Positions 10,066 through 35,095 of a stretch of DNA of 47,418 nucleotides are shown one piece after another. Within the stretch, counting starts at the first letter, position 1; each line of letters begins with the position of its first letter. The notes beneath the pieces are model-generated. The model ran no database searches, was not told where the DNA came from, and worked only from the letters and a program-made list of their open reading frames with translations. The translations under genes and the position numbers were made by a program. The DNA is from a virus (Duplodnaviria > Caudoviricetes), in IMG/VR virus record IMGVR_UViG_3300037307_000217, positions 1-47,418 of that record, one strand, 5' to 3'.

Positions 10066-10132
10066 ATGCCGAATGCCATCGGGACTACATCTACTTCCAA
10101 TTGACTGATGTCTCGAAAATTTTTGTCGGCAT
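10066..10132 (+). ncRNA. Y-RNA-like element 1 (cargo: Gly-TCC-type loop CTTCCAA)
   Basis: Outer stem ATGCCGA/TCGGCAT, GCCGAATGC, inner stem TCGGGAC/GTCTCGA, TACAT, TTGTC. Confidence 0.7.
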
Positions 10133-10135
10133 TAT

Positions 10136-10209
10136 GCCTCGGTAGCTTAATGGTAGAGCTACTCCCTTACAAGGAGAAGACGATGGTTCGATTCCATAAC
10201 GAGGTACCA
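10136..10209 (+). tRNA. tRNA-Val(TAC)
   Basis: Cloverleaf, loop CTTACAA, TTCGA T-loop, CCA. Confidence 0.85.
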
Positions 10210-10215
10210 ATTTAT

Positions 10216-10290
10216 TGCGGGTTGTGAAGGTTCGCCGCTCGGTCTCATAAGCCGATGTCGAAGAGGGATCGTTCCCCTCGCCCGCTACCG
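10216..10290 (+). tRNA. tRNA-Met(CAT), initiator-like, atypical
   Basis: TCGGT-CTCATAA-GCCGA; 1:72 mismatch; T-loop ATCGTTC; ends ACCG rather than ACCA. Confidence 0.65.
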
Positions 10291-10310
10291 AAAACAAGTC
10301 GAGGTATGTA

Positions 10311-10911
10311 ATGGCTCATCTCTATAAGATAACCCATTTACCGACCAGTAAAGTATACTACGGTTCTACATGGGGAATGAAACGGTTCGAAAGAAAAGAC
10401 ATATCTGGATCGTTTTGATGATCATATGAATGGAAAAGGTGGGAAGTATATCTCTCTTCTAATTGAAGATGGAGCAACTCAAGATGAATTTGGTATTGAA
10501 TTGTTGATGATATCAACCCCGGAGTTCTGTCGAGAGATTGAATCGATATTATGTAGGACTTCTATATTTCCTGTCGGGTTGAATGGTAACTACGGGATGA
10601 ACATCATACATTCAGATCTGACTCGAGAAAAGATACGAAAGTTTAGAACTGGAAAGAAGCATTCTGAAGAGTCAATAGAATTGATGAGATTAAAGCATAA
10701 GGGGAAGGTGATAAGTCCGCATACCAACATCCATAAAGAGAAGATTAGTGAATCGATGATGGGCAAGAATACAGGACCGCATCCTTGGGTTACTCCAAAT
10801 CATAAAACTCTTGTCTTTGACGTTCAAGAACAAGTCAGAAAAATGGTAACATCTGATGAATATGGTAGTGATCGTGAAAGGTATATATCTTGCCGGATCA
10901 CGAGAATATAA
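10311..10911 (+). CDS. GIY-YIG (Seg-like) homing endonuclease with NUMOD3 repeats; frameshift near 10380
   Basis: ATG 10311 gives MAHLYKITHLPTSKVYYGST (GIY-YIG-like); 10426 frame has GKKHSEESIELMRLKHKGK; free-standing in a tRNA cluster like T4 segB. Confidence 0.7.
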
Positions 10912-10926
10912 ACAAAGAAAACTTAC

Positions 10927-11002
10927 GGGGCTTTAGCTCATCTGGGAGAGCGTCTGCTTTGCACGCAGAAGGTAGTCGGTTCGATCCCGACAAGCTCCAC
11001 CA
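10927..11002 (+). tRNA. tRNA-Ala(TGC)
   Basis: GGGGCT acceptor with G3:U70, loop TTTGCAC, CCA. Confidence 0.95.
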
Positions 11003-11020
11003 ATTTAAATGCGGTTGTAT

Positions 11021-11095
11021 GCCCTCATAGCTCAATGAACAGAGTTCAGGACTACGAATCCTGCGATAGAGGTTTAACTCCTCTTGAGGGTACCA
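11021..11095 (+). tRNA. tRNA-Arg(ACG)
   Basis: CAGGA-CTACGAA-TCCTG, CCA. Confidence 0.85.
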
Positions 11096-11101
11096 GTAAC
11101 A

Positions 11102-11240
11102 TGGTTGAATGCAAATAGGACTACATTATTCAAAACTTTTGGTCGTGAGTTCGAATCCCATTCTCGGCTCCACTCAATGCCGAGGTAGCTCAGTTTGGCA
11201 GAGCGAAAGTCAAAAATGTCTTATACCCACTTGTCAACCA
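11102..11240 (+). ncRNA. Y-RNA-like element 2 with circularly permuted tRNA body (YrlA-like)
   Basis: Outer stem TGGTTGA/TCAACCA; inside, T-arm GTGAGTTCGAATCCCAT, acceptor TCTCGGC-TCCA-CTCAAT-GCCGAGG, D-arm GCTCAGTTTGGCAGAGC, closed by ACTTT/AAAGT. Confidence 0.8.
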
Positions 11241-11250
11241 CAACGAATGA

Positions 11251-11389
11251 AGAGTGAATGCAGCTCAGGACTACATTGGAAACTCCTGTACGCAAGTACT
11301 TGATGGTTCGAGTCCATCCTTCGGCTAACCCCCGAAGTGGCGAAATGGCAACCGCGGGAGTGTGCTGTCTTAGCGACACTTGTCACTCT
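11251..11389 (+). ncRNA. Y-RNA-like element 3 with permuted type-II (Leu-like) tRNA body
   Basis: Outer stem AGAGTGA/TCACTCT; variable arm GTAC-GCAA-GTAC, T-arm GATGGTTCGAGTCCATC, acceptor CTTCGG/CCGAAG, D-arm GCGAAATGGCAACCGC, closed by ACTCC/GGAGT. Confidence 0.8.
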
Positions 11390-11397
11390 ACTTACAT

Positions 11398-11506
11398 TGA
11401 CTCAAATGCTGATCGGGATTACATCTACCATTGTCGAGGTTAGCTTCGGGCTAGCCATAGGGGTCAGGTGAGAGCCTCCCCGAATCTCGTCGAACTTGTT
11501 GAGTCA
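11398..11506 (+). ncRNA. Y-RNA-like element 4 (two-hairpin cargo)
   Basis: TGACTCAA/TTGAGTCA, CGGGATT/AATCTCG, TACAT; hairpins GGTTAGC/GCTAGCC and GGGG..CCCC. Confidence 0.7.
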
Positions 11507-11515
11507 TCAGTTTAT

Positions 11516-11582
11516 TCCTCGAATGCTGTGGGGTCTACATCTAACGACATAGCGGTGACTCCACCAAACCTGTTGTCGAGGA
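11516..11582 (+). ncRNA. Y-RNA-like element 5 (minimal)
   Basis: TCCTCGA/TCGAGGA, GTGGGGTC/GACTCCAC, TACAT, TTGTC. Confidence 0.7.
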
Positions 11583-11593
11583 TCCTAAATAAC

Positions 11594-11671
11594 GATCGAA
11601 TGCTTGTTGGGACTACATTCATCAGCCTCATAAGCCGACGCGAAGCAACGTCTCAGCATCTCTTGTCGATC
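11594..11671 (+). ncRNA. Y-RNA-like element 6 (cargo: CAT anticodon stem-loop)
   Basis: GATCGA/TCGATC, TGTTGGGAC/GTCTCAGCA; TCAGC-CTCATAA-GCCGA. Confidence 0.72.
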
Positions 11672-11681
11672 ACCTTACAAT

Positions 11682-11783
11682 AGGTTGAATGCCACTCAGG
11701 ACTACATTGGAGAATAGGCTTCTGTAACAGGTTGCCTTACGAGGATTCGATACCTCGGTTGTCTTGAACAGACTTGTCAACCT
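11682..11783 (+). ncRNA. Y-RNA-like element 7 (cargo: GTA loop plus T-arm-like hairpin)
   Basis: AGGTTGA/TCAACCT, TCAGGAC/GTCTTGA; CTGTAAC loop; CGAGG-ATTCGATA-CCTCG. Confidence 0.7.
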
Positions 11784-11794
11784 TCTTTTACAAT

Positions 11795-11866
11795 GACTCG
11801 AATGGTAATGGGATTACATCATCTGCAAACCGCTGACGCTAACATCTCATTACAGCTTGTCGAGTC
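11795..11866 (+). ncRNA. Y-RNA-like element 8 (cargo: Cys-type loop CTGCAAA)
   Basis: GACTCGA/TCGAGTC, GTAATGGGAT/ATCTCATTAC, TACAT, CTTGTC. Confidence 0.72.
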
Positions 11867-11899
11867 TTCTCATTCACATAGTACTACAGGGAAGAAGTT

Positions 11900-12322
11900 A
11901 TGATCAAGAAAAAACCAACATACTCCGAATTAGCACTCCAGTCGGCGTCATCATCTTGGTGGTACTTCGTCCCAGTAGCACTCAAAGAACTTGGAAACAC
12001 AATCTCGATCATCAAGGGAAAGTTGATCAACGATCAACAGTTCAACCAGGAAGATCTGCCTAAACTCAGAAAGCTGTATGCACAGTTGAGAGACTTGAGC
12101 GCTAAGAACAAAGAGCTATCCAACTTCAACGGCGTGGCTGAAGAGAAAGATTTGTTGAAACAGATGTTCACTGTCGTCAATAGCTACTTTGATAAGACGA
12201 ATATCACAGCTGGAGTTCAGAAGAGGGTTACAAGAGCGATGATGGGTTCTCCTGTAGCCACCGTCGATAGCTACTACTACAAGGTAGGCAACGACAAAGG
12301 GTTTGCACTTCTAGTATTTTGA
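11900..12322 (+). CDS. hypothetical protein
   Basis: 140 aa ORF filling the gap between RNA genes. Confidence 0.6.
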   Translation: MIKKKPTYSELALQSASSSWWYFVPVALKELGNTISIIKGKLINDQQFNQEDLPKLRKLYAQLRDLSAKNKELSNFNGVAEEKDLLKQMFTVVNSYFDKTNITAGVQKRVTRAMMGSPVATVDSYYYKVGNDKGFALLVF

Positions 12323-12327
12323 TCTTT

Positions 12328-12402
12328 TTCGAGTTCGTCTAACGGAAGGACGCACCGCCTCTGAAGTGGTGTATCGAGGTTCGAATCCTTGACTCGAAGC
12401 CA
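12328..12402 (+). tRNA. tRNA-Gln(CTG)
   Basis: ACCGC-CTCTGAA-GTGGT, GCCA end. Confidence 0.9.
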
Positions 12403-12408
12403 AACAGA

Positions 12409-12482
12409 TCACTCTTCGTCTAATGGCAGGACAAGGGACTTTGAATCCCTGAATTGGGGTTCGAGTCCCTGAGAGTGAACCA
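12409..12482 (+). tRNA. tRNA-Gln(TTG)
   Basis: AGGGA-CTTTGAA-TCCCT, CCA. Confidence 0.9.
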
Positions 12483-12486
12483 GAAC

Positions 12487-12595
12487 ATGCTTGAATGCCT
12501 GTAGGGACTACATTTCTCCATTAAAGAAACGGTGCGGTTCGATTCCGCCTCGGGCTTGGTAGCCGGTAAAACGTCTCTACTCTTTTGTCAAGCAT
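12487..12595 (+). ncRNA. Y-RNA-like element 9 (cargo: 7-nt-loop hairpin, T-arm, D-like hairpin)
   Basis: ATGCTTGA/TCAAGCAT, GTAGGGAC/GTCTCTAC; TTTCT-CCATTAA-AGAAA; GCGG-TTCGATT-CCGC; GGCT-TGGT-AGCC. Confidence 0.75.
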
Positions 12596-12616
12596 TTTTA
12601 CATTGAGGAGGTTGTT

Positions 12617-13027
12617 ATGGTCAGCTACATTGACATCTATCGTGACGCCCGTAGGAAATTTGGCCCAATCGAGAGTTTGCACTATGTTCTGAATGACGCC
12701 AAGGCGACTCATCCATCTCTCAAGCAGTATCTGAATGACGACATCAACCTGCTGTTCGGTCAGATCATGCAGTCTGCTCGAGTCCTAGTGACATGCGTCA
12801 GAGACATCGATGACTTTACCGCGGCTGGCATCAATGAAGCGACGGTGTCATTCGTTAGGCAGAACTTCATTCGAGCAAGAGCCCATCTATCCTACTACAT
12901 CGGAGAAGACACCCTGTCGTTGTTCTTGAGTGAGATCACTCAAACACCTCTAATACAACTCGAGTATGGGACACTTCCGAGTAAAGAGGAGATGATCAAG
13001 ATGATCGAATCCTACGGAAAAGACTAA
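12617..13027 (+). CDS. hypothetical protein
   Basis: GAGGAGG SD, 136 aa. Confidence 0.7.
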   Translation: MVSYIDIYRDARRKFGPIESLHYVLNDAKATHPSLKQYLNDDINLLFGQIMQSARVLVTCVRDIDDFTAAGINEATVSFVRQNFIRARAHLSYYIGEDTLSLFLSEITQTPLIQLEYGTLPSKEEMIKMIESYGKD

Positions 13028-13032
13028 CACAT

Positions 13033-13106
13033 GGCGATGGGGAGGACGGCTCCTCACACGGTTCATAACCCGAAGATAGCTTGATCGACACAAGCCATCG
13101 CTACCA
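13033..13106 (+). tRNA. tRNA-Met(CAT), atypical
   Basis: GGCGATG/CATCGCT acceptor, loop TTCATAA, T-arm GCTTG-ATCGACA-CAAGC, CCA. Confidence 0.7.
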
Positions 13107-13127
13107 TTGTCTCCCCATAAATAACAA

Positions 13128-13209
13128 AAAGATGAATGCTTCTGGGACTACATTTACTTGACCTAAATCTCGCTTCAGGCGAGCTTGTCTCAGATATCTT
13201 GTCATCTTT
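13128..13209 (+). ncRNA. Y-RNA-like element 10 (cargo: TGA anticodon stem-loop plus extra hairpin)
   Basis: AAAGATGA/TCATCTTT, TCTGGGAC/GTCTCAGA; ATTTA-CTTGACC-TAAAT then CTCGC/GCGAG; CATAAATA box at 13116. Confidence 0.75.
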
Positions 13210-13238
13210 CCTTTCTATCATCTTGGGGGATACACACT

Positions 13239-14476: not shown

Positions 14477-14489
14477 GTAGGAGATCATT

Positions 14490-14741: not shown

Positions 14742-14759
14742 CGCCCGCATCCTATTAAG

Positions 14760-14837
14760 ACCGCGATAGCCCAAAGGTAGAGGCAGGTGGCGCACCAGCC
14801 CCGCCAGTGATTGGTTCGATTCCATCTCGCGGCACCA
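14760..14837 (+). ncRNA. tRNA-like RNA without a canonical anticodon loop
   Basis: Acceptor CCGCGA/TCGCGG, D-arm, GGTTCGATTCC, ACCA; anticodon arm GGTGG-CGCACCAGCC-CCGCC has a 10-nt loop with no U33. Confidence 0.7.
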
Positions 14838-14865
14838 ACTAGCAGTCCTAGAAATGAGGTACTCA

Positions 14866-17108: not shown

Positions 17109-17120
17109 CCCACCTATAAT
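17092..17120 (+). promoter_or_regulatory. sigma70 consensus promoter upstream of the glycosyltransferase operon
   Basis: TTGACA-17-TATAAT. Confidence 0.8.
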
Positions 17121-17149
17121 TGGCACGTATAGGTATAAAGGAGGTTAAC

Positions 17150-17620
17150 ATGAAATTCAAACTACTCAAGAGCATTCCGCTCTGTCTACTTCTCTCAAGT
17201 GCTCATTCAGATCCATCTTGGACGTTCAGGCTGCCAGAGCAGCATCTTGATGCCCAGTATACTGTTGACGTCAAAGCTGGTCCGTACATCACTATCACCA
17301 AGATCCCAGTAAAAGGCTCACTTGAGTCATGGGAGGGAGTGGTATCCAATGCGCGCCCCTGCTGCTACAAGATAGCGGTTCTGTCATTCACTGATGGGTG
17401 GTACACGAAGCCTTGGTTCTCGGCACCCGATACACAGTTTGATCAAACAGGCGCGTTCAAATTCGATATCATCACTGGAGACGGCAATCCAGGAGAAGCG
17501 ACGCAAGTGTCGATCAATCTTGTCCCTAAAGCCCTTGAGACTCCTGTTGCAACAGGAACTCGAGATATCCCCAAATCCATTACAGCCCAATCCGTATTCT
17601 CAATCATCCTAACTCGTTAA
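17150..17620 (+). CDS. secreted hypothetical protein
   Basis: AGGAGG SD; signal-peptide-like MKFKLLKSIPLCLLLSSAHS. Confidence 0.65.
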   Translation: MKFKLLKSIPLCLLLSSAHSDPSWTFRLPEQHLDAQYTVDVKAGPYITITKIPVKGSLESWEGVVSNARPCCYKIAVLSFTDGWYTKPWFSAPDTQFDQTGAFKFDIITGDGNPGEATQVSINLVPKALETPVATGTRDIPKSITAQSVFSIILTR

Positions 17621-17630
17621 GGAGATAGCA

Positions 17631-18881
17631 GTGAGTAACCTTAAAAGGTTTCCCAAGAATGACTGTGCATTGAAGACTTCGTCATACTTACAAGAGCAAG
17701 CGGGGACGGATCTTGCAATTCCAGAACTCGTACCAATCTCATCGTTGAACTATACAGCGCCAGGGCAGATCCCTCCCAGGAAAGGCAAGAAGCTAGTGAT
17801 TGCTGCTGTCCTTGCAGCAGTGTGCTATGGATCATACAATGTATGGAACACTTACTTCCGTTATGAGTCCTTCGGAGTAGTCTCTGCGAATGTCGTTGGT
17901 GTCTACTCTCCTATCGAAGGCAAGGTTCAAAGGTTGGAAGTGACTGAAGGTATGCCTGTTGAGGCAGGAAGCTATGTCGCCAAGGTTACTAACTCTAATG
18001 ACTATCGTGAACTTCTCAAGATTGAAGATGAGATCCAAGTTACTCAATCCGAGATAACTGCTAAGGAAAGCGAGAACCGTTGGAACCGTGGTCGCAACAA
18101 TGACACGTTCTACGAAGCAACTGGGCAGCTAACCACTGAAGAAGGACAACTGGCAGAGATCAAAGCAAAGCTGATTCTTCAGAAGACTAACCTGTCTCGT
18201 ATCAGGCTGCTCAAAGGTCAGGGAGCTGTGAGCCAACTCGATCTAGACAAAGCAGAGGCAGACGTTGCTCAGTCACAAGCGTTGATCTCTGGAAAGACGA
18301 ATACGATTGCAGCAATGAAGTCTCGCATCGAAAGATCCCGCCCTACTGTGGATGACGACGGATCTTCACAGATCATTCCATTGACGAAGAAGCTCGAGTA
18401 CCTCAAGAACGAGAAGAAGCGTCTAGAGGAGAAGATCGCTGAAGGGGAAATCACCAGTCCAGTGACAGGCATTGTTTCATCGATTACTCATCACGCTGGT
18501 GAAAGAATCACTGGAGACGAGATCTTCAACATCGTCGAAGACAACTCTACGAAGCTGGTACTGTACTACAACCCAGCGGCGCGAGTCCCACAGATTGGTG
18601 AAGAAGTAGATGTGTGGGGTCCGTCTCTCAATAAGACGGTCAAAACTAGGGTTGTTGCTCTATCCCGAGACACAGCAGCCCCACCAGACCAGATCAAGCG
18701 CAACTACTCTGCGGATGACAAGTTGATCAAAGTATACTTGCAACCCAAGGATGCTGACATCAACACGTTTATCGTAGGGAGCACTATCAAGCGCCCAAAT
18801 GTGATCGAATCAATCACTGGCTTGACTCAAGTCGCTAGTTTCTTAACTGGTGAAACTGCCAGCGCAAGCGAGAAGAAGTGA
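17631..18881 (+). CDS. HlyD-family membrane fusion (periplasmic adaptor) protein
   Basis: N-terminal TM, lipoyl halves SPIEGKVQRLEVTEG and ITSPVTGIV..GE, coiled-coil with GAVSQLDLD. Confidence 0.85.
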   Translation: MSNLKRFPKNDCALKTSSYLQEQAGTDLAIPELVPISSLNYTAPGQIPPRKGKKLVIAAVLAAVCYGSYNVWNTYFRYESFGVVSANVVGVYSPIEGKVQRLEVTEGMPVEAGSYVAKVTNSNDYRELLKIEDEIQVTQSEITAKESENRWNRGRNNDTFYEATGQLTTEEGQLAEIKAKLILQKTNLSRIRLLKGQGAVSQLDLDKAEADVAQSQALISGKTNTIAAMKSRIERSRPTVDDDGSSQIIPLTKKLEYLKNEKKRLEEKIAEGEITSPVTGIVSSITHHAGERITGDEIFNIVEDNSTKLVLYYNPAARVPQIGEEVDVWGPSLNKTVKTRVVALSRDTAAPPDQIKRNYSADDKLIKVYLQPKDADINTFIVGSTIKRPNVIESITGLTQVASFLTGETASASEKK

Positions 18882-18887
18882 GGTACT

Positions 18888-19589
18888 ATGATCAGTGCTA
18901 AACTAGCCACCTCAAAAGGTGAGTGGACTGGGGATTGTGAGATCACGGAAGATAAGTTCTCACTCTCAATAGAGACGTCTATCCCTATCGCATTCAGCTA
19001 TGGAGTTCTTCACTTCAGCAACACAACGGTTCCTGTGCCTGTGATGGCTGGGACATCTAGGTTCAAAGATGGTGTAATGACTGTGAAATGCCATCGTTTT
19101 GTTGATCCAACTGGATGCGTTGTTTATACCTCCTTCATAGAGGGCAACGATTATCAGTACCGCATTGATAAACAGTCTCTCGATCTATTTGTAAAGCATG
19201 GAGTTGCAACATCCAAAGTTGTCGATAGAGTGTTGATATGCCCGGAATGCGAGTGTGTAGCTTTCACTATTCGTCCTGGGTGTCCATCCTGCGGTTCTCA
19301 TGCTACTCGACCTGATCAACTGGTGCACCATTACGCTTGCGGGAACGTCGATCTCCTTGAGACATTCACAATCAATCGCCAGCAGGGCTCTCTCGCTTGC
19401 GGTAAGTGTCATAAGGATGGTCTAATCATCAACGTGGACTACGATGTCTCTGCCGGATTGCAGCGCTGCATGGATTGCGGTTGGACAGGTAACAACGCTA
19501 AGCTCATTGGCCGATGCTTGTGCTGTGAAACGACTTTCCTGGTCACAGAAGCGAAAGAAATCAACCTGATGGAGTACACAATGCTATGA
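18888..19589 (+). CDS. multi-Zn-ribbon protein (TackOD1-like output domain)
   Basis: CPEC, CPSC, HYAC, CGKC, CMDC, CLCC knuckles; family name is from recall of the Cys spacing. Confidence 0.6.
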   Translation: MISAKLATSKGEWTGDCEITEDKFSLSIETSIPIAFSYGVLHFSNTTVPVPVMAGTSRFKDGVMTVKCHRFVDPTGCVVYTSFIEGNDYQYRIDKQSLDLFVKHGVATSKVVDRVLICPECECVAFTIRPGCPSCGSHATRPDQLVHHYACGNVDLLETFTINRQQGSLACGKCHKDGLIINVDYDVSAGLQRCMDCGWTGNNAKLIGRCLCCETTFLVTEAKEINLMEYTML

Positions 19590-20875
19590 TTTACGATGCT
19601 CTGTACTGGTTCTCAGGATTCAGTACAGAGCAGTATCTCATGACTTTCAGTGGGATGCTGCTCTTAGATGGTCCTAGATACCTATTCGCAAACCTAGTCT
19701 TGCTGATGTGGACTTTCTTTTCGGATCTATGGCATGGAAAGCAAACCCCAAAGGGAGCCTATCTGCCTACAGTGTGTGCGCTCATTCCTGGCTTGAACGA
19801 GTCTGCAACAATGAGACAGTGCCTGGAGACAATCCACGGCAGTTATCCGTTTCTCCAGATCATAGTCATCGACGACGGATCTACAGATGGTACATTCGAG
19901 ATTGCGTCTAAGTTTGCAGAGACACATAGTGATGTCTTGGTTCTGAGACGTCCTCATGGTGGTGGCAAGAGCACTGCACAGAACTTCGCATACCCTTACA
20001 TCACTGCAGAGATCATTGTCGTCATCGACTCAGACAGCACCTTCGGACCTGATGCTATCTACCGATTGGTGCAGCCGTTTAGAGATCCTGAAGTGGGCGG
20101 AACATCGGGCTGTATCCTCGTCAGGAATCCTACAGACAGCCTATGCACGCTATTCCAAGCCTATGAGTATCTGATCTCGATCATGGTGGGTAGAGTGCTC
20201 TCAGCTAAAATGGGGATGCTATCCATTATCAGTGGTGCCTTTGGTGCATTCAGAACAGACATCTTCCGTCGTGGATACGGTATGGATGTTGGACCTAGTG
20301 AAGATTCAGATATCACCATCCGCATTCGCAAGATGGGTTACAAGGTGGTGTTCGTACCTGAGTCAGAGTGCTATACGGATGTTCCGATCAAATGGAAGCA
20401 ACTATGGAATCAAAGACTCCGTTGGGATATGGGAATCGTCAGAATCCATCTTCGCAAGCATATCGAAGGCGCCAGTCTGGTGAGCAACAACTTCCGATTC
20501 ACGAACTTCTTGTACTGGTACGACACCATGTTCTTTTCAGTGTGGTGTACCTTCTCGTTCTGGTTCATGTTAGGCGCTCTGTTTTTGAATCTGGATTGGC
20601 AGACTATCAAGAACTTATCCGTTTGCGTTGCACTCGGGTATGGGATCTTTGGATTCTTCCAAGTCCTCACTGTTATGTTCTACAGTGTGAATCTTAAGCG
20701 TGACTTGCTACCTTGTATCGTGTTCCCGCTCTATTCACTCTATGGAGGATTCTTCATGCGAGCAGTGAGGACAGTAGCTTGCATTGATGAGCTCATCAAT
20801 AGATCTTCTTACCGTGACAACTATGTGCCCAACTATGTCCAAAGGCACGCCTACCTGTGGAAGACGAAGTACTAA
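19586..20875 (+). CDS. processive GT2 glycosyltransferase (PgaC/IcaA/hyaluronan-synthase-like)
   Basis: DDGSTD, DSD, SGAFGAFR, SED, QRLRW motifs; several TM helices. Confidence 0.9.
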   Translation: MIYDALYWFSGFSTEQYLMTFSGMLLLDGPRYLFANLVLLMWTFFSDLWHGKQTPKGAYLPTVCALIPGLNESATMRQCLETIHGSYPFLQIIVIDDGSTDGTFEIASKFAETHSDVLVLRRPHGGGKSTAQNFAYPYITAEIIVVIDSDSTFGPDAIYRLVQPFRDPEVGGTSGCILVRNPTDSLCTLFQAYEYLISIMVGRVLSAKMGMLSIISGAFGAFRTDIFRRGYGMDVGPSEDSDITIRIRKMGYKVVFVPESECYTDVPIKWKQLWNQRLRWDMGIVRIHLRKHIEGASLVSNNFRFTNFLYWYDTMFFSVWCTFSFWFMLGALFLNLDWQTIKNLSVCVALGYGIFGFFQVLTVMFYSVNLKRDLLPCIVFPLYSLYGGFFMRAVRTVACIDELINRSSYRDNYVPNYVQRHAYLWKTKY

Positions 20876-21780
20876 TGAAATGTATAAATACTTATCTCGG
20901 AGCATGTCTCATGCTCATTTCATCTATCGTTTCTGCAAATCCATCAGGAGGTAGCACTATGAGAGGATTGCTAGTTGGAGAACTCTACTCCATCGTAACT
21001 GACACAACCAAAACCCAACAGTTCCTTGATTTCATCAAGAAGTATGGGTTCACTGAATTGACCTTCTACACTGGTGGCCCTGTCGCGACTAGAGTCATTC
21101 CATTGAAGCAGCCAGAGCTTAAGTCTCTGATCGAGAAAGTGAGGGCACAAGGAGTGAAGTTTGTATCTATCGCTGTCGGCGGAACTGCAGAGATGGATAG
21201 AGTCAACAAGTTCTTAGAGACTCAATCGGTCAAGATCGATGGATTGTGGCTTGAATACGAATGGTGGAACAACTCACCAAGAGACTTCACCACCAACGCA
21301 ACGACGATTCTTAAGTACATGCGATCTAAAGCAGCGCCTGGTACGGTTATCGGAGCCTACATCGGATGGACTACCCAGAGTGAGATGACTGCTCTAATCA
21401 AACTCGTTGATCGTGTGTACATGCACTCGTATGTCGACAAAGGATCAAAGTTGTACCCGAAGGTTCAGTCTCGTCTTGATCAAATCAAGAGAGCAGCTCC
21501 CACTACCAAGGTCAAGGTACTTCCAATCATCAGTGCTGAATGGCTGCCCCCAGCAATCTGCAACTTGGGCCCGTCAGCCCCAGGATACTACGACAACATG
21601 TGCTTCTTGGGTCCTTGGTTGAAGGCCAATGGTGCATTTGATGGCGCAGAGGCGGCATTCAACTTGGCAGAGAAAGCAGATAGGCCAATACTGTCTACGA
21701 CTAAGACCTGGCGTGACTATGCGGAGATCACTGGATTCTACTTCTACTCATACACACATTGCGTAGATGCACTGAAATGA
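20875..21780 (+). CDS. secreted protein, possible TIM-barrel glycoside hydrolase
   Basis: Signal peptide; IDGLWLEYE resembles the GH18 DGxxxDxE motif; operon context. Confidence 0.5.
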   Translation: MKCINTYLGACLMLISSIVSANPSGGSTMRGLLVGELYSIVTDTTKTQQFLDFIKKYGFTELTFYTGGPVATRVIPLKQPELKSLIEKVRAQGVKFVSIAVGGTAEMDRVNKFLETQSVKIDGLWLEYEWWNNSPRDFTTNATTILKYMRSKAAPGTVIGAYIGWTTQSEMTALIKLVDRVYMHSYVDKGSKLYPKVQSRLDQIKRAAPTTKVKVLPIISAEWLPPAICNLGPSAPGYYDNMCFLGPWLKANGAFDGAEAAFNLAEKADRPILSTTKTWRDYAEITGFYFYSYTHCVDALK

Positions 21781-24993: not shown

Positions 24994-25293
24994 ATACCTG
25001 TAAGTCAACCAACCTTCCAGCAGGCAACACAAATGATCGAGTTCGAAGTCGTCGGTTATACACTCACCGGAATGTACTGTCAGCCGGTTATGGCCACTTC
25101 TAAGGAAGAGGCTCTCGAGATCGGTAAACCGAAGTTGATCAAAGAGTTGCGCCCAGTAGGGAAAATTCAACGCTGGGAGGTTCGTAAGGCCTGACTTTCT
25201 ATTGATTCATAACTCAAACAGAGGAGTACGTGTCATGTAGCCTAAACGCAGTCTCGTTCTTGCTTGTGGAAAATTGAACTAGAGGATAATGAA

Positions 25294-25917
25294 ATGAAGG
25301 TCAAGCACTCCCGTACGTATCACTTGCCCTGGAGTCCCGGGGTAGGTAGCGATGATCGCGTTCTTAGATCAACAGATCAGTTTGAAGGGCGTCGAGTCAT
25401 CGTAACTGAGAAACGCGACGGCGAGTGTACATCGTTGTATCGTGATGGAACGGTGCACGCTCGCAGCATTGATGGAACTAACCATCCTTGGCAGGATGCA
25501 GTGAAAGCAATGTGGCGCGAGCGTTGCATCGATCTCCCTGAAGAGTGGCGCATAGTTGGTGAGAATCTCTACGCTGAACACAGCATCCGCTACGACAACC
25601 TCACCGATTGGATTGAAGTATTCGCCATCTTTGATGAGACCAATACAGCCCTATCTTGGGATGAAACGGTTGAATGGAGTTCACTACTCGGCCTCTGGAC
25701 GGTTCCTGTCTTGTGGAAGGGCTTGTGGGATGAAGATCAGATCCGTCATTTGCAGTACAATCTAGATTCAGAAAAACAAGAAGGGTTTGTAGTTCGAGTC
25801 GACGGTCCTATCGCATTTGAAGATTGGGACTGGGTAGTAGCTAAATGGGTACGCAAAGGTCATGTTCAAACTGATCAACATTGGACCAAGACCTGGAGGC
25901 CAAACTCAAAAGGATAA
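25294..25917 (+). CDS. ATP-dependent RNA ligase family protein
   Basis: Motif I TEKRDGE, GENL, EGFVVR, AKWVR. Confidence 0.85.
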   Translation: MKVKHSRTYHLPWSPGVGSDDRVLRSTDQFEGRRVIVTEKRDGECTSLYRDGTVHARSIDGTNHPWQDAVKAMWRERCIDLPEEWRIVGENLYAEHSIRYDNLTDWIEVFAIFDETNTALSWDETVEWSSLLGLWTVPVLWKGLWDEDQIRHLQYNLDSEKQEGFVVRVDGPIAFEDWDWVVAKWVRKGHVQTDQHWTKTWRPNSKG

Positions 25918-27085: not shown

Positions 27086-27991
27086 ATGAAAAAGTGTATC
27101 TTAACTGTTGGAATCAGCGCTAGCGGCAAGACGACTTGGGCTGAGGAGTTCGTTCAAAATCAAGTGAAGTGTGGAGAGAACTGGCACAACATCAACAGAG
27201 ATCAGATCCGAGAAGAGGTCTTTGAGATCAAAACCGGATTTCCTCGATTCCGTTGGAGTGACTGGAGCCGCACTTGGGAGAAAGAAACATCTGAACGCTG
27301 GAAGTTGCTGATCCAACAAGTACTCGCCAATCCTGATCTGGATGGTGTTGTCATCAGTGACACCAATCTCAATCCTAAGACGCGCAATTGGCTCACGCGA
27401 GTCTTTGAAGAAGCAGGGTGGGATGTGGATTTGAAGTTCTTCCCAATCGACTACGAAGTGGCCGTTAAGAGAGACCTCTCGCGAATCAACCCTGTCGGTA
27501 GCCACGCTATCGCAGAACAGATCGAGAAGTACTGGGATCAGTTCTGTGAGAGGTATGTAGGTGATGAGACTCTACCCAGAGCAGTGATCGTCGACATCGA
27601 CGGAACGGTGGCTCATACAACCACGCGTAACATCTATGATTGGACGGCTGTACACACTGACCGCTCTGATACTGTGGTGTGTGATGTAGTGCGAGGATTG
27701 AAAGCTCAAGGGTACAAGATTGTAGTGACCAGTGGTCGAGATGAGATATCCAGAGAGTTCACTTGGAACTGGTTGGTCAGTCACCTCGGATTCGAGCCCG
27801 ATGATCTATTCATGCGCCCATTCAAAGATATGAGAAGGGACGCCATCGTCAAGCGTGAGTTGTTTGACGCTTACATCAGGAATAAATACAATGTGGTGCT
27901 GGCCATCGATGATCGTCCAGTGATCGTAAGATTGTGGCGTAGCCTCGGTATTCAGACACTGGCTTGCGGATTACAGCACAAGGAGTTCTAG
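27086..27991 (+). CDS. pseT: polynucleotide 5'-kinase / 3'-phosphatase (T4 PseT-like)
   Basis: P-loop GISASGKT and INRD; HAD domain DIDGT, SGR, DDR. Confidence 0.9.
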   Translation: MKKCILTVGISASGKTTWAEEFVQNQVKCGENWHNINRDQIREEVFEIKTGFPRFRWSDWSRTWEKETSERWKLLIQQVLANPDLDGVVISDTNLNPKTRNWLTRVFEEAGWDVDLKFFPIDYEVAVKRDLSRINPVGSHAIAEQIEKYWDQFCERYVGDETLPRAVIVDIDGTVAHTTTRNIYDWTAVHTDRSDTVVCDVVRGLKAQGYKIVVTSGRDEISREFTWNWLVSHLGFEPDDLFMRPFKDMRRDAIVKRELFDAYIRNKYNVVLAIDDRPVIVRLWRSLGIQTLACGLQHKEF

Positions 27992-28239: not shown

Positions 28240-28312
28240 GCGGGTATAGCTCAAAGGTAGAGCGTGATGGCTTCCGACCCTCAAGATGCGCGTTCGAATC
28301 GCGTTGCCCGCT
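28240..28312 (+). tRNA. tRNA-Gly(TCC), no encoded CCA
   Basis: GCGGGTA/TGCCCGC, loop CTTCCGA, T-arm GCGCGTTCGAATCGCGT. Confidence 0.7.
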
Positions 28313-28575
28313 CGATATTACGAGGAGATGATTATGAGTAACTGTGATGATTTGATGGAGCAACTCAGCGATTGTTGTGAGTTACTTCGGGGCCCAAAAC
28401 AATCACCATGCAGACTAGATCCACAGGTTGTAAGCTAAACTTTGATCTAGATCATGTTCCGCAATTCAATCCTGTCGATGTTGAAGATGGTGTGAAAACA
28501 GTTGCAATCTACAAATGCCATGACGTTCCTGGCTATTCAGAAGTTCACATCGTTGTGGTAGCACGCAAAAACAAT

Positions 28576-31140: not shown

Positions 31141-31179
31141 ATGATTACAAAGTCGTCAATCAACCTCGGAGCTTCAAAA

Positions 31180-31512: not shown

Positions 31513-31517
31513 GAAGG

Positions 31518-31796: not shown

Positions 31797-31824
31797 ACTA
31801 ACTTCCACACTAAGGGCAATAGAG

Positions 31825-32088: not shown

Positions 32089-32096
32089 AGAACATT

Positions 32097-32174
32097 GGCA
32101 CCTGAGTCTGCTAGGTGTGGACGCCTGCCTGTCACGCAGGATATAGAGGGGTTCGAATCCCCTAGGTGTCGCCA
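32097..32174 (+). tRNA. tRNA-Asp(GTC)
   Basis: CCTGC-CTGTCAC-GCAGG, GCCA. Confidence 0.9.
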
Positions 32175-32390
32175 ATCACCCGACGAGGAGATCTTGATGG
32201 TAACTGAAAGTGAGTTGAGAACTGATGTGAACTATGAGTACTATCGACTGTCGATCGGCGTATGGGTCCCGGCTCAGTTCAAAGAGAAGATCTATCAAGG
32301 TAGGACTCCGAAGTTCGTCTTTGATCTGGGGAACAACGTCGTTATCGAATGCTCAAATCTGAGGTACGTACGCGAAGTGAAGTAGATAAC

Positions 32391-32465
32391 GAACCGTGGG
32401 GCGGCTGGTGTGGCCAGTAGTCTTTCAAACTACTCAGATGGGATCGAAACCCATACGGTTCACCA
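32391..32465 (+). tRNA. tRNA-Glu(TTC)
   Basis: GTAGT-CTTTCAA-ACTAC, CCA. Confidence 0.85.
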
Positions 32466-32473
32466 GATTCAAT

Positions 32474-32548
32474 GGGAGTGAAGCTTTGGCGGCGAAGCAG
32501 CGGGCTCTTAATCCGCAGAGGAGGGTTCGATCCCCTACGCTCCTACCA
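32474..32548 (+). tRNA. tRNA-Lys(CTT)
   Basis: GCGGG-CTCTTAA-TCCGC, CCA. Confidence 0.9.
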
Positions 32549-32554
32549 ATCAAC

Positions 32555-32631
32555 GCACCGTTCTGCTAATGGCCCAGGCGACTAGCTTCTCAGGCTGGGA
32601 AATAAGGGTTCGACTCCCTTACGGTGTACCA
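32555..32631 (+). tRNA. tRNA-Glu(CTC)
   Basis: CTAGC-TTCTCAG-GCTGG, CCA. Confidence 0.85.
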
Positions 32632-32638
32632 AGTTAAC

Positions 32639-32712
32639 GGGTGTCTAGTTCAATGGTAGAACATGGCCCTTTTAAGGCCTCAATCTAGGTTCGATTCCTA
32701 GGACACCTACCA
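32639..32712 (+). tRNA. tRNA-Lys(TTT)
   Basis: GGCC-CTTTTAA-GGCC, CCA. Confidence 0.9.
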
Positions 32713-32718
32713 CATACT

Positions 32719-32794
32719 GGGCCCATAGCTCAACAGGTGGAGCAAAGAACTCATAATTCTGAGGATGCAGGTTCGAGTCCTGCGGGGCCCACCA
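32719..32794 (+). tRNA. tRNA-CAT, probably Ile2 (lysidine type) rather than Met
   Basis: AGAA-CTCATAA-TTCT; GGGCCC acceptor resembles ileX-type tRNAs. Confidence 0.8.
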
Positions 32795-32796
32795 GC

Positions 32797-32804
32797 TATA
32801 AATA
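32797..32804 (+). promoter_or_regulatory. T4-type late promoter
   Basis: TATAAATA immediately upstream of an ORF. Confidence 0.65.
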
Positions 32805-33072
32805 CAAGAAGGATGAATATGAATGCCTATGAGAAGATCATCGCCTACGGCAGTGAGTTCGGAGTAGACAATCTCAGTGTTGATGCACTCATCTCGAGTC
32901 ATCGATCCATGCGAGAAGCCATTAGATCAGATCAGAAGATCTGGCTAGAAATGTTGGAACAGGCTAGACAACGCGCCTATCAACAAGTGCTAGACACATC
33001 TTGGATCCGAATTGAAGATCTCAAGAAGATGAGTGTGCAGGAGTTAGCGAATCTCCTGAGTGAAGATTAACT

Positions 33073-33146
33073 GCGGGTAAGCTCGAGGTGGGCCGCCAGC
33101 CTTCCAAGCTGTGCAGAGTAGGGTTCGATTCCCTCTATCCGCTCCA
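33073..33146 (+). tRNA. tRNA-Gly(TCC)
   Basis: CAGC-CTTCCAA-GCTG, TCCA. Confidence 0.85.
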
Positions 33147-33415
33147 AACTGAGGACTATGAATGAAGAATGTAATCCAGTGTTACCGTGTTCTTGATCCT
33201 GATCTCATTGCCAAGCCTGAAGATCAGCAGAGTCAATCAATCGAAGATGCGTTTGCTGCACCAGTAAACATCCACATACACGATGCAGATGAAGGTCTCT
33301 ACTATGTCGTTAGGGTGCTTTCATTTGATGACATAGTCTTAGAGAAGTTGGATCCTGAATCTGATGTGTATAAAGAACTGATTAAGATGTTAGAGGATTC
33401 GCCTTTACCTGGCAC

Positions 33416-33444
33416 TTGACTTTCACTTGAAACTGCGCTATACT
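33416..33444 (+). promoter_or_regulatory. sigma70-like promoter
   Basis: TTGACT-17-TATACT. Confidence 0.7.
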
Positions 33445-33625
33445 ATTCCAATGAAATCAACCTAGAGGGCATTCTAATGATGAGACCGTGGACTCAGATA
33501 CTGCCATTCTTCATCGTGCGGTACATTGCGCTCAAGAGTTCAGAGCGATTCGTCATGGATAAGAAGGTGTGGGTGCAAGTGTATGCAGACACCTTCATCC
33601 GAGTGAAAGACAAACCATAAACAAC

Positions 33626-33709
33626 GGGCGGGTAGACCGCTAAGGAGACGGGGCAGACTGTAAATCTGCTGCTTCGGCCCGCCAGGATCGTTACCTGGAC
33701 CGCCCACCA
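33626..33709 (+). tRNA. tRNA-Tyr(GTA)
   Basis: GCAGA-CTGTAAA-TCTGC, long variable arm, CCA. Confidence 0.9.
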
Positions 33710-34006
33710 ATTCAACTTGATAATGAGATAGTTATGATCAACAGCATCCTTGTTGAACCGAAGCTGACAAGTGATTTCGTTAAGTTCACAGTCACTCGTA
33801 ACAATGATTTGAGAATAAAGGTGCCCATTGATACGACACAGGCTGATATCGAAGTCTGGACTACAGTAGGCATCAACCTGTTTAACTCCATAGCTCCGGT
33901 TGATCGTTCCTATAGAGGCAAAGTTCGCATAGGCGAGTCTCATGTATCAATGTACAACGATGCCAAAACTCATTCTATTGCTGTGGAGTTAAAATTTGAA
34001 GATAAC

Positions 34007-34082
34007 GCCTCTCAAGCTAACCAGGTGGAAGCAGCGGACTGAAAATCCGCAGGGCTTGGATCGATACCAAGGGGAGGCACCA
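34007..34082 (+). tRNA. tRNA-Phe(GAA)
   Basis: GCGGA-CTGAAAA-TCCGC, CCA. Confidence 0.9.
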
Positions 34083-34089
34083 AAACAAT

Positions 34090-34165
34090 CTCTGTGTAGC
34101 TGAGCTTGGTTTAGCACCGCGTTTGGGGCGCGGGGACGCAGGTTCGAGTCCTGCCACGGAGACCA
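34090..34165 (+). tRNA. tRNA-Pro(TGG)
   Basis: CCGCG-TTTGGGG-CGCGG, ACCA. Confidence 0.9.
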
Positions 34166-34171
34166 ATTCAT

Positions 34172-34248
34172 TGAGGGGTAGCACTCAGGGCGAGTGCACC
34201 TGACTGTTAATCAGGATGGAGGTGGGTTCGATCCCCACCCCCTCAGCC
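34172..34248 (+). tRNA. tRNA-Asn(GTT)
   Basis: CCTGA-CTGTTAA-TCAGG, GCCA. Confidence 0.9.
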
Positions 34249-34255
34249 AAACAAC

Positions 34256-34330
34256 ATCTCAGTGGTCTAGCGGTACGATGCTGGTCTCCAAAACCATGCG
34301 ACGAGGGTTCGAATCCTTCCTGGGATGCCA
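34256..34330 (+). tRNA. tRNA-Trp(CCA)
   Basis: TGGT-CTCCAAA-ACCA, GCCA. Confidence 0.9.
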
Positions 34331-34349
34331 AACAATGTATGAGGTGAGA

Positions 34350-34937
34350 ATGAAACGATTGATCGGATTGACTGGTACGACAGGATCCAATACGATTGCG
34401 GGCTGTGGGAAAGACACAGTCGCCGCAATGATCGCATTGAGAACTGGATATACGATCTACGGCTTTGCTGATCCCCTCTACCAGATGGTGAAAGCTGGAT
34501 TTGGGATAGATGGAAAGAGCGAAGAGTATCAAGATAGACTGGCGAAAGCGAACCCAATCCCCTGGCTGTCAACATCAGATCAACCTATATCTCTTCGCTA
34601 TCTGTTAGAGACTCTAGGAACGGAGTGGGGTAGGGATCTGATTCAACCCGATGTGTGGTTGCGTTTAGCATCCAAGTTCATAAGAGAGTGCCCAACTGGG
34701 GTCATAATCAAAGATGTTAGGTTCCCAAATGAGGCGGAGTGGCTAGAGTCAGAGGGAGGTGTTCTAATACATATCTTGAGACCCGACTACTTCGCACCTG
34801 ATGCAACGAAAGGGCATCCATCAAACATACCGCTTCCAATCAGAAGCCAGAACAAAATGATCATGAATGACTGCGATATCAACACTTTGAGTTCTCGAGT
34901 AGAATCATTGTGCTACATGGAAAAGTTCTGCACTTAA
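34350..34937 (+). CDS. deoxynucleoside monophosphate kinase
   Basis: LIGLTG..AGCGKDT, FADPL, R.LLETLGTEWGR, DVRFPNE; GAGGTG SD. Confidence 0.9.
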   Translation: MKRLIGLTGTTGSNTIAGCGKDTVAAMIALRTGYTIYGFADPLYQMVKAGFGIDGKSEEYQDRLAKANPIPWLSTSDQPISLRYLLETLGTEWGRDLIQPDVWLRLASKFIRECPTGVIIKDVRFPNEAEWLESEGGVLIHILRPDYFAPDATKGHPSNIPLPIRSQNKMIMNDCDINTLSSRVESLCYMEKFCT

Positions 34938-34940
34938 GAC

Positions 34941-35016
34941 GCCGCTATAGCTCAGACGGTAGAGCAACTCACTTGTAATGAGAAGGTCGGGGGTTCGATT
35001 CCTCCTGGCGGCACCA
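34941..35016 (+). tRNA. tRNA-Thr(TGT)
   Basis: CTCA-CTTGTAA-TGAG, CCA. Confidence 0.92.
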
Positions 35017-35021
35017 GAACA

Positions 35022-35095
35022 TGCCTGAATGCTCGATGGGATTACATTTGACTGCTAATCAAAACCGTAAAAATCTCATCACTTCTTGTCAGGCA
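35022..35095 (+). ncRNA. Y-RNA-like element 11 (cargo: perfect GCT anticodon stem-loop)
   Basis: TGCCTGA/TCAGGCA, GATGGGAT/ATCTCATC; TTTGA-CTGCTAA-TCAAA. Confidence 0.75.

Follow-up and report, generated by a model that had tools for sequence, protein, structure and literature searches.

Anticodon-type stem-loops on Y RNAs of a tailed phage and their homologues, a possible bait for tRNA-targeting toxins

The window analysed here, the 47,418-nt record IMGVR_UViG_3300037307_000217 (Caudoviricetes) at its full length, carries eleven small Y-RNA-type genes of the YrlA/YrlB type, about four of which display an anticodon-type loop. In elements 6 and 11, and family-wide in homologues, this is a 7-nt Y32-U33-NNN-R37 loop on a covarying stem; across the family, a scaffold with covarying helices bears a loop that follows tRNA rules at the tRNA distance from the T arm. 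We propose, with a probability of roughly 0.4, that Y RNAs with such an arm may serve as unchargeable bait for host toxins that cut or modify tRNAs. The features discussed below are the following.

9069-9097 and 9339-9367, + strand: two sigma-70 consensus promoters (12/12 matches each)
10065..10133, + strand: element 1, short YrlB-like Y RNA (Rfam YrlA 31.8 bits, YrlB 18 bits; closing helices)
10216..10289, + strand: tRNA-Met(CAU), anticodon arm resembling that of element 6
11101..11241, + strand: element 2, full YrlA (Rfam YrlA 43.5 bits, gathering score 69)
11250..11390, + strand: element 3, long Y RNA; T arm plus hairpins resembling acceptor and D arms
11398..11506, + strand: element 4, Y RNA carrying a pair of GC-rich hairpins
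11515..11583, + strand: element 5, short Y RNA with a 3-bp hairpin and 6-nt loop
11592..11673, + strand: element 6, Y RNA bearing a Met(CAU) anticodon arm (11622-11638)
11681..11784, + strand: element 7, Y RNA containing a hairpin like a T arm; loop sequence CTGTAAC (11722-11728)
11794..11867, + strand: element 8, short Y RNA; CTGCAAA at 11823-11829 without a stem
12487..12595, + strand: element 9, Y RNA with 5-bp/7-nt hairpin (12513-12529), then T arm
13128..13209, + strand: element 10, Y RNA with stem-loop (13152-13168) and second hairpin (13169-13183)
25264..25917, + strand: RNA ligase family gene (Pfam PF09414, E=2e-25; context of tRNA repair)
27086..27991, + strand: polynucleotide kinase/phosphatase gene (Pfam PF25109, PHROG 505; context of tRNA repair)
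33073..33145, + strand: tRNA-Gly(UCC), loop CTTCCAA (weak Rfam tRNA-clan match plus sequence; missed by ARAGORN)
35021..35096, + strand: element 11, Y RNA bearing a Ser(GCU) anticodon arm (35047-35063)

Both helices of the scaffold, the closing helix formed by the 5' and 3' ends and the inner stem, are found in 11/11 elements, and YGAATG, corresponding to the GNCGAAN0-1G-type motif of YrlA and YrlB, occurs in 10/11 (CAAATG in element 4). Element 2, which has a T arm, a D arm and a 7-bp acceptor stem with encoded CCA, aligns across the entire YrlA model. As all scores stay below the Rfam gathering scores (YrlA at best 43.5 and 31.8 bits versus 69; YrlB 17-18 bits in the window versus 97), we class the elements as divergent YrlA/YrlB relatives and not as curated-threshold members. 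The window holds 29 called tRNAs, and the two perfect promoters sit upstream of the tRNA/Y RNA cluster. A Pfam profile search of the fragment returned neither RtcR nor RtcB, and no Ro60 gene lies within these 47 kb, which make up the whole record, or in four close relatives, all of them fragmentary. Ro60 is present in 25/50 of the related viral records listed (10/17 of the near-complete ones) and in 116/255 of the element-bearing loci listed. Recurrent neighbouring ORFs without Pfam matches turned out to be mostly shadow frames of Ro60 or RtcB.

A sequence-only reading of the window had described a panel of seven anticodon loops. Every sequence it quoted is present where it was placed, and of the panel elements 11 and 6 hold, 10 and 9 are plausible, while 1, 7 and 8 are unsupported. 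Element 11 (TTTGA-CTGCTAA-TCAAA), located immediately downstream of a tRNA-Thr, forms 5/5 pairs in its predicted fold (z=-4.4) and has, as claimed, a loop identical to that of the phage tRNA-Ser(GCU); its stem is kept in four orthologues with the triplets GCU, GCU, GCA and CUC, among which helices 1 and 2 covary. Element 6 (TCAGC-CTCATAA-GCCGA) forms 4/5 pairs and indeed matches the tRNA-Met arm at 15/17 letters, and a homologue (locus L326) combines the identical loop with a perfect stem. In element 10 the 5-bp A-U-rich stem (5/5 pairs) and the UGA triplet of the loop CTTGACC are there, but the stem is absent from the predicted fold and position 37 is C, which also contradicts the statement that all elements except 9 have A37. 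An orthologue (genome G040) keeps stem and UGA, the loop recurs in two other loci (L174, L272), and the second hairpin is conserved in G040 with a compensatory change; this hairpin had been likened to a Ser variable arm, and is not Ser-specific because hairpins of this kind come after Asn and Thr loops too. The 5-bp/7-nt hairpin of element 9 (loop CCATTAA, with C33) was recovered in the predicted fold; its stem is shared with a Bas63 RNA whose loop likewise has C33, and loop position 32 lies 20 nt from T54.

The remaining assignments fare less well. CTGTAAC of element 7, taken for Tyr, has 5/5 pairs, but three are G-U and the stem is missing from the predicted fold; in a close strain, read from contigs of run X2 that are probably DNA and served only for strain differences, loop positions 32 and 34 differ. 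CTTCCAA of element 1 (10094-10100), assigned to Gly, has just 3/5 stem pairs, and relatives keep a pyrimidine run (CTTCCTA, CTTTCCT) resembling the 6-nt loop of an enterobacterial YrlB, which leaves the anticodon reading doubtful. The supposed Cys loop of element 8 has fewer than 3/5 pairs. Stem and Y32-U33-NNN-R37 loop are thus not combined in elements 10 (C37), 9 (C33), 1 and 8 (no stem). The sequence TTGTCGA in element 4 (11431-11437), the loop 7-mer of 7 phage tRNA-Asp, is a doubtful Asp-like loop. Elements 2, 3 and 5 are without a CU-NNN-A-type loop, element 2 lacking any anticodon-type stem-loop and the first hairpin of element 3 being capped by a GCAA tetraloop, and no element in the window combines a clean anticodon loop with a T arm at 21-22 nt. 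Against a null in which the 34 nt downstream of TACAT were shuffled 5000 times, CU-NNN-A with 4/5 pairs or more is in excess (3/11 elements, namely 6, 7 and 11, versus 0.21; P=0.0014). The loop pattern alone occurs in 6/11 versus 3.1 (P=0.06), and stemless loops therefore do not exceed chance.

The enrichment test suggested by the sequence-only reading was run on homologues and revealed a strong bias to anticodon-type 7-nt loops at this position. The homologue sets are samples: three scans covered 8, 19 and 47 of 64 parts, and a first viral pattern scan, of 15/64 parts, gave mostly chance matches. Elements were retained only where both helices close, and T loops, which confound the Y-U-NNN-R test on T-arm elements, were excluded. 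Among the matches listed, the loop is carried by 11/87 viral, 23/88 metagenome and 23/74 bacterial T-arm-free homologues, versus about 1 in shuffles, and hence only by a minority of TACAT-type elements (57/249). Bacterial genomes and phages carry the anticodon-type loop equally often. For 86 listed viral Y RNAs chosen on their flanks only and read at the 7-mer lying 22 nt upstream of the T loop, stem plus loop occurs at this distance in 47/86 versus a null of 0.38, and in 0-1 at each of eight other distances; U33 is found in 70/86, a purine at position 37 in 83/86, A38 in 81/86 and A34 in just 4/86. TACAT-type RNAs peak at the same distance (15/71 listed versus 0.23); the tRNA spacing of 21-22 nt from position 32 to T54 is realised in homologues. 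In loops picked without a stem criterion, positions 30:40 form Watson-Crick pairs, of all four types, in 65/77 versus 21 with shuffled partners, and G37 follows G36 as in tRNAs (23/26 versus 2/77). Cultured and harmless systems with such loops are M. smegmatis YrlA, mycobacteriophage Cali, Streptomyces phage TunaTartare, Xanthomonas phage Sopo and coliphage Bas63. The TACAT pattern has no match in five cultured-phage loci, whose scaffolds diverge and were read via Rfam and folding; Rfam reports no YrlA in the Bas63 tRNA region, and when 151 genomes from one enterobacterial family were searched for YrlB, the centre genome alone was recovered.

While the loop rules are kept, the triplet changes and acceptor identity and CCA are not kept in homologues. 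In pairs at 70-80% likeness the triplet differs in 37/40 and U33 in 7%; in this comparison the conservation of position 38 is partly by construction, since A or C was required, and the tRNA control is uninformative. The discriminator base is unrelated to the triplet (28/89 matches to a table of identity rules versus 25.3 by permutation) and CCA is encoded in 7/89, and charging is therefore not the selected function; an open acceptor end with CCA and a matching identity, as in a functional tRNA, are lacking. Against permutation of whole triplets among loops, matches to real tRNA 7-mers are only weakly in excess (68/116 versus 60.6; 59/5000). Ser triplets make up 21/120 versus 19/601 in tRNAs, on a phage-heavy baseline and with related sequences; an apparent enrichment of GUN (queuosine) triplets disappeared against tRNA genes (25/120 versus 106/601).

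In the bait model, the YrlA/YrlB stem common to the eleven elements is predicted to bind a Ro60 that would be encoded outside the 47-kb fragment, and the Y RNA genes would be co-transcribed with the tRNA cluster. About four elements present a tRNA-type anticodon stem-loop directly after TACAT; host tRNA enzymes may modify these arms, which could then occupy or trap anticodon-reading toxins by competition, and the phage kinase and ligase may rejoin cut RNA. Full-length members are modelled as a circularly permuted whole tRNA, open between D arm and anticodon arm with the Ro stem joined at this opening, and short members retain the anticodon arm alone. Competition of YrlA with an anticodon nuclease has been put forward as a speculation by Hughes et al. 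2020. Two triplets that rank in the top three of 70 in the flank-selected viral set, Asn-GUU (12) and Thr-UGU (8), are reported AriB/OLD targets, a post hoc observation.

Several observations argue against bait. AriB seems to need contacts beyond the anticodon arm, which a bare arm does not offer. The prime toxin targets Lys-UUU (PrrC), Glu-UUC (the prime target of RloC) and initiator Met (VapC) are unenriched (Lys-UUU 2, Glu-UUC 0 and Met-CAU 3 of 120 listed loops), and a plain decoy faces competition from the abundant tRNA pool. Bas63 gp130, expressed by itself in the absence of phage RNAs, countered Ppl, and the partner documented for Y RNAs of phages and bacteria is PNPase. The equal frequency of the loop in bacteria and phages, its restriction to a minority of TACAT-type elements, the absence of Ro60 from the window and four fragmentary relatives, and the frequency of A34 in another listed loop set (15/120, above 23/601 in tRNAs) weigh in the same direction. 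More tentatively still, Ro60-Y RNA particles of phages and bacteria might constitute an unrecognised anti-tRNase system, a swappable library of anticodon arms whose triplets take part in an arms race with toxins; this library would be protein-stabilised and range up to whole permuted unchargeable tRNAs.

The arm could instead be an address that takes Ro60, with or without PNPase, to host tRNA-reading machinery, such as codon-stalled ribosomes, synthetases or modification enzymes, and steers RNA decay or translation. We regard this as somewhat unlikely. It would explain why real anticodons and the 36-37 rule are kept, as decoding or modification would require, and accords with Y RNAs being established PNPase tethers, with the attenuation of PNPase by phiLo Ro60-Yrl complexes and with the loop being no commoner in phages than in bacteria. 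The quick triplet turnover among close relatives fits a housekeeping address poorly, however, closed acceptor stems without CCA rule out normal EF-Tu delivery, and a Ro60 ring sitting where the D and anticodon arms hinge may clash with a ribosomal site.

That the triplet is irrelevant, the arm being kept merely as a piece of a stable tRNA-like fold that can be modified, or as a relic of tRNA-gene capture, is unlikely. Triplets do vary widely (41 distinct in one listed homologue set), most elements are without the loop, Salmonella YrlA functions without it, and the element 6 arm is nearly a copy of the phage tRNA-Met arm. Yet the avoidance of A34 in the flank-selected set and the G36-G37 coupling persist on stereotyped, non-tRNA stems, short RNAs that have lost T, D and acceptor arms still carry the loop, the loop rules are intact where acceptor identity has decayed, and the Ser tRNAs of this phage have no stem sequence in common with elements 10 and 11.

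It is rather improbable that the Y RNAs act as sacrificial sensors or repair substrates, the cyclic-phosphate end of a cut loop signalling to RtcR or being rejoined by RtcB on Ro60. RtcB adjoins elements in 46/255 loci listed, tRNAs cleaved within the anticodon loop, mainly after A36, induce the Salmonella operon, and A36 loops are enriched (43/120 listed versus 110/601), but the other class is rich in U36 (49/86), loops are not commoner near RtcB (19/43 loci with Ro60 and RtcB versus 23/41 with Ro60 only, on short flanks), and the phage fragment has neither RtcR nor RtcB. Maturation of full-length members into chargeable two-piece tRNAs held by Ro60, which would resupply decoding, is very improbable: all four arms stand at tRNA spacing, RNase P cleaves M. 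smegmatis YrlA, which also gains CCA, and element 2 encodes CCA, but discriminator and triplet mismatch, CCA is rare, and in the window the loop-bearing elements have no acceptor stem while element 2 has no anticodon loop.

YrlA is described as a mimic of D, T and acceptor arms that lacks an anticodon loop (PMC4201824; 10.1101/312249). Counted by eye, 5/7 of the YrlA seeds in Chen et al. 2014 have an anticodon-type loop in their 'V' arm, 22 nt upstream of the T loop; the crystallised Salmonella YrlA has none. Because of these published seeds, we read the anticodon arm as an apparently overlooked feature of a known Y RNA family and not as a phage-only design; the notion that anticodon display departs from YrlA is thereby corrected. 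Reading 'V' as an anticodon arm turns the modelled partial mimic into a whole permuted tRNA, bears on the binding partner of the tRNA-like domain of bacterial Y RNAs, a question since 2014, and offers a small mutable handle for the partner search (three letters, U33 and base 37). If true, the bait model would describe a non-coding counter to a fast-growing class of tRNA-targeting defences.

The elements resemble YrlA (RF02553) in the Ro module (GNCGAA-type motif, YUAY, closing helix), in T arm, closed acceptor stem and D arm, and in the Ro60 and RtcB adjoining relatives; YrlA is also known from phages, and this fragment differs by its eleven copies with varied payloads. With YrlB (RF02565) they share the short hairpin format, the Ro module and a loop that follows GGAUUACAU and is closed by CAU/AUG, but the one enterobacterial YrlB compared has a 6-nt pyrimidine loop whereas many homologues here have 7-nt CU-NNN-A. 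Deinococcus Yrn1 has likewise been modelled with a 5-bp anticodon-like arm, though with a 6-nt loop, its arms in another order and a Ro helix of metazoan type. Thermus phage phiLo encodes Ro60 with Yrl1/Yrl2, for which a counter-defence role was proposed, working in that case via host PNPase; the term 'anticodon' is absent throughout that paper (PMC12135203). Phage tRNAs neutralise PARIS, retron-Eco7, PrrC and OLD (PMC12409363, PMC11555353, PMC12445682) and are likewise tRNA-shaped phage RNAs set against tRNA-targeting immunity. Those tRNAs are chargeable and replace the cut host tRNA, whereas the Y RNAs described here would be unchargeable mimics built on a predicted Ro60-binding stem.

The window, which comprises the entire 47,418-base virus record (G000), carries genes for neck and tail-sheath-stabiliser proteins of T4-like type, for an RNA ligase and for a polynucleotide kinase, together with 29 tRNA genes called by ARAGORN. 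Its 11 plus-strand Y RNA elements, numbered by position, have in common the sequence YGAATG-N-GGNYTACAT and two helices closed by a 3' YTTGTC strand. Rfam YrlA scores are 43.5 bits for element 2 and 31.8 bits for element 1 (gathering score 69), and three elements match YrlB at 17-18 bits. tRNA genes lie immediately 5' of several elements, and two perfect sigma-70 consensus promoters are located upstream of these Y RNAs. Neither Pfam searches of 78 ORFs nor a 39-protein Ro60 profile run on all six frames detected the Y RNA-binding protein Ro60 in the window. The following further features were observed:

6640-9115, 24958, 26786 and 31092: family of strong, almost identical promoters, GGTTGAC...GCTATAAT, preceded by a conserved AT-rich box
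8229-8372: tandem repeat with an 18-nt unit, within a 311-aa ORF (7830-8765)
10426-10911: NUMOD3 homing-endonuclease-like ORF between tRNA-Met and tRNA-Ala, absent from the stretch that contigs of sequencing runs X1 and X2 cover
14803-14839: T arm and CCA resembling a tRNA 3' end, called by neither ARAGORN nor Rfam
17120-21780: operon-like block, unusual in a phage, with an HlyD-family adaptor, a TackOD1-domain protein, a PgaC/IcaA-like family 2 glycosyltransferase and a secreted-looking protein
28240-28313: phage tRNA-Gly with atypical anticodon loop CTTCCGA (G37)
36131-36206: phage tRNA-Val with atypical anticodon loop GTGACAT (G32)
38448-38525: phage tRNA-Ile with atypical anticodon loop CCGATAA (C33)
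46087-47340: adenylosuccinate-synthetase-like gene, possibly of a modified-base pathway; the best PHROG annotation is 2-aminooxy adenylosuccinate synthetase, and in NCBIfam PurA outscores PurZ, both far under cut-off

The sequence-only reading had proposed that seven elements display a panel of tRNA anticodon loops. Element 11 bears this out: its stem is fully paired (5 bp), its loop CTGCTAA is that of the phage's own tRNA-Ser(GCU), and the arm forms in the predicted fold; its orthologues (n=4) keep the stem throughout and present the triplets GCU (one with C33), GCU, GCA and CUC, the C33 variant being seen in contigs of all four sequencing runs examined. In element 6 the loop CTCATAA is present, but the stem is imperfect, with only 4/5 pairs; a metagenome homologue has the identical loop on a perfect stem. 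The claim that all loops except that of element 9 carry A37 fails for element 10, which has C37 and whose orthologue in genome G040 keeps the stem and UGA with positions 32, 37 and 38 changed. Element 9 forms a stable 5-bp hairpin with C33. The Tyr-type arm of element 7 is unsupported, as three of the pairs in its stem are G-U and loop positions 32 and 34 are altered in a close strain, and elements 1 and 8 have no stem. When element payloads were shuffled, CU-NNN-A loops with at least 4/5 pairs (3/11 elements) exceeded chance (P=0.0014), while the bare loop pattern without a stem requirement (6/11) did not (P=0.06). On the per-element pairing and loop evidence and the shuffle test, the panel was cut to two loops that are firm and two that are plausible variants, with three readings left unsupported. 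The window bears out the display of anticodon loops in part.

Viral, metagenome and genome collections, scanned by pattern, gave 400 distinct two-helix elements of the TACAT class among the matches listed, their kinship lowered by identity filters with some relatedness remaining. The homologues show a strong bias for anticodon-type loops at the post-TACAT position relative to shuffles. A 7-nt CU-NNN-A loop on a stem of 3 bp or more is present in 11/87 viral, 23/88 metagenome and 23/74 bacterial T-arm-free non-redundant elements listed, compared with about 1 (maximum 6) in mono- or dinucleotide shuffles; in T-arm-free elements hairpins with 7-nt loops are enriched, and those with loops of 5, 6 or 8 nt lie inside the null range. 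YU-led 7-nt loops with a stem were found in 116 of the 355 TACAT-class elements listed (null 28), with a purine at 37 in 97, A or C at 38 in 101, and 41 distinct triplets. For 77 elements selected on the loop only (offsets 1-7), the pair 30:40 is Watson-Crick in 65, versus 21 with shuffled partners, and takes four pair types. The 150 T-arm elements show a loop peak 22 nt before T54 (15/71, null 0.23), and also at 21 nt (6/77), which is the tRNA spacing. Anticodon-type loops occur in a minority of TACAT-class elements.

An independent scan selected solely on flanking features (GTTAY, variable loop, T loop and D arm) and yielded 124 matches in 121 loci among those listed; 22 within ARAGORN tRNAs were removed, and the filtered set comprised 90 non-redundant elements, 86 of sufficient length. 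At 22 nt before T54 the 7-mer, taken without selection, carries U33 in 70/86, a purine at 37 in 83/86, A38 in 81/86 and A34 in 4/86. A Y-U-NNN-R loop with a stem is found there in 47/86 (59 with A32 permitted; null 0.38); the remaining distances between 18 and 26 nt give 0-1 each. Across both classes, 103 of the 191 permuted elements listed have an anticodon-type loop. G37 is present in 23/26 loops with G36, but in 2/77 with another base at 36; G37 accompanying G36 is the m1G37 pattern of real tRNAs. Of the loop-bearing elements, 89 have an acceptor stem of 7 bp; 7 of these 89 encode CCA, and agreement between discriminator base and triplet, in 28/89 by a general rule table, is no better than chance (25.3). 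In pairs at 70-80% likeness the triplet differs in 37/40, the corresponding differences being 7% for U33, 31% for the stem and 29% for the acceptor; triplet turnover is thus faster than stem turnover, and one 99%-alike pair carries Arg-UCU versus Thr-UGU. The anticodon-arm feature is strongly confirmed across the Y RNA family.

With Ro60 in 116/255 and RtcB in 46/255 element-bearing loci listed, TROVE matches in 25/50 viral records, and the ligase and kinase of the window, the Y RNA genes sit amid tRNA-damage and repair functions. Phage TROVE proteins have been described as RNA-repair platforms in the accessible text of PMC7824862. A search of the window gave no homologue of a phage protein family (L162:3983-4588; no Pfam match) that is encoded close to Y RNA arrays at 15 loci.

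Selection preserves a loop resembling a real, modifiable anticodon loop, whose triplet shifts from one real anticodon to another; charging identity is not preserved. Since the loop rules are kept and charging identity is not, the partner would read the anticodon arm rather than the acceptor end. Judged from sequence, the most likely role (probability about 0.4) is that the arm acts as a bait for anticodon-reading toxins, a reading favoured by the triplet turnover and by the expansion to eleven copies in the phage. Also in its favour, Asn-GUU and Thr-UGU, reported targets of AriB and OLD (accessible parts of PMC12409363; PMC12445682), make up 20/70 triplets in the flank-selected class, a match noted post hoc. 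Counting against the bait role, Lys-UUU, Glu-UUC and Met-CAU loops are rare and, as far as the available text of the sources goes, AriB seemingly requires contacts outside the anticodon arm (PMC12409363), the Ro60-like gp130 of phage Bas63, which counters the Ppl defence, is effective without its RNAs (PMC11482910), the shown partner of the phiLo Y RNAs is PNPase (PMC12135203), and the phage counters already known are chargeable replacement tRNAs (PMC11555353). The arm might instead be an address directing the RNA to ribosomes or tRNA enzymes, which we consider possible but unlikely. An arm that is a structural part or a relic is improbable. A Y RNA acting as sensor for RtcR/RtcB is slightly less probable again: RtcB neighbours are present, but loops and RtcB showed no association. 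A chargeable split tRNA, beside the near-chance discriminator match, is very improbable.

According to the accessible text of Chen et al. 2014 (PMC4201824), YrlA is a mimic of the D, T and acceptor arms and has in addition a less conserved 'V' stem-loop, an account restated in the available parts of PMC10424219 and PMC8394870; Salmonella YrlA lacks an anticodon loop according to the accessible part of Wang et al. (10.1101/312249). The word 'anticodon' is absent from 5/6 supplementary files searched, and no description of anticodon arms on YrlA-type RNAs was found among the papers within reach of the searches aimed at this feature. In the published seed alignment (Chen et al. 2014), with arms and distances counted by eye in the part available, M. 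smegmatis and Streptosporangium carry the loop CTTCTAA, Gordonia CTCATAA, phage ET08 ATTGAAA and Rhizobium TCGTTAA (C33), each a 7-nt loop on a 3-4-bp stem whose distance to the T loop is exactly 22 nt; by the same count the Salmonella and P. fulva seeds have no such arm. Anticodon display is therefore not a design different from described YrlA RNAs, as had been supposed, since these five seed members carry it. The same arm occurs in the cultured phages Sopo, Cali and TunaTartare, the Cali triplet being UGC versus UGA in ET08. In Bas63 (L655:14069-14911), four unannotated RNAs lie among tRNA genes downstream of gp130, with the scaffold AGAAGACC...ACAGCAA...GGTCTGG; among them is a permuted tRNA whose arm is Thr-GGU-like. 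This permuted tRNA-like RNA, on a scaffold unlike the YrlA type, has a perfect 5-bp arm, its loop CCGGTAA precedes the T loop by 21 nt, and the whole-RNA fold z is only -1.4. A short Y RNA in another genome (L515, G024) is present in three identical tandem copies and one variant copy. At two further loci, L080 (minus strand, element at 674 of the reverse complement) and L059, the payload runs D arm, anticodon arm, T arm, and the Ro stem replaces the acceptor stem; these Y RNAs have a Yrn1-like arm arrangement, but their scaffold is that of YrlA.
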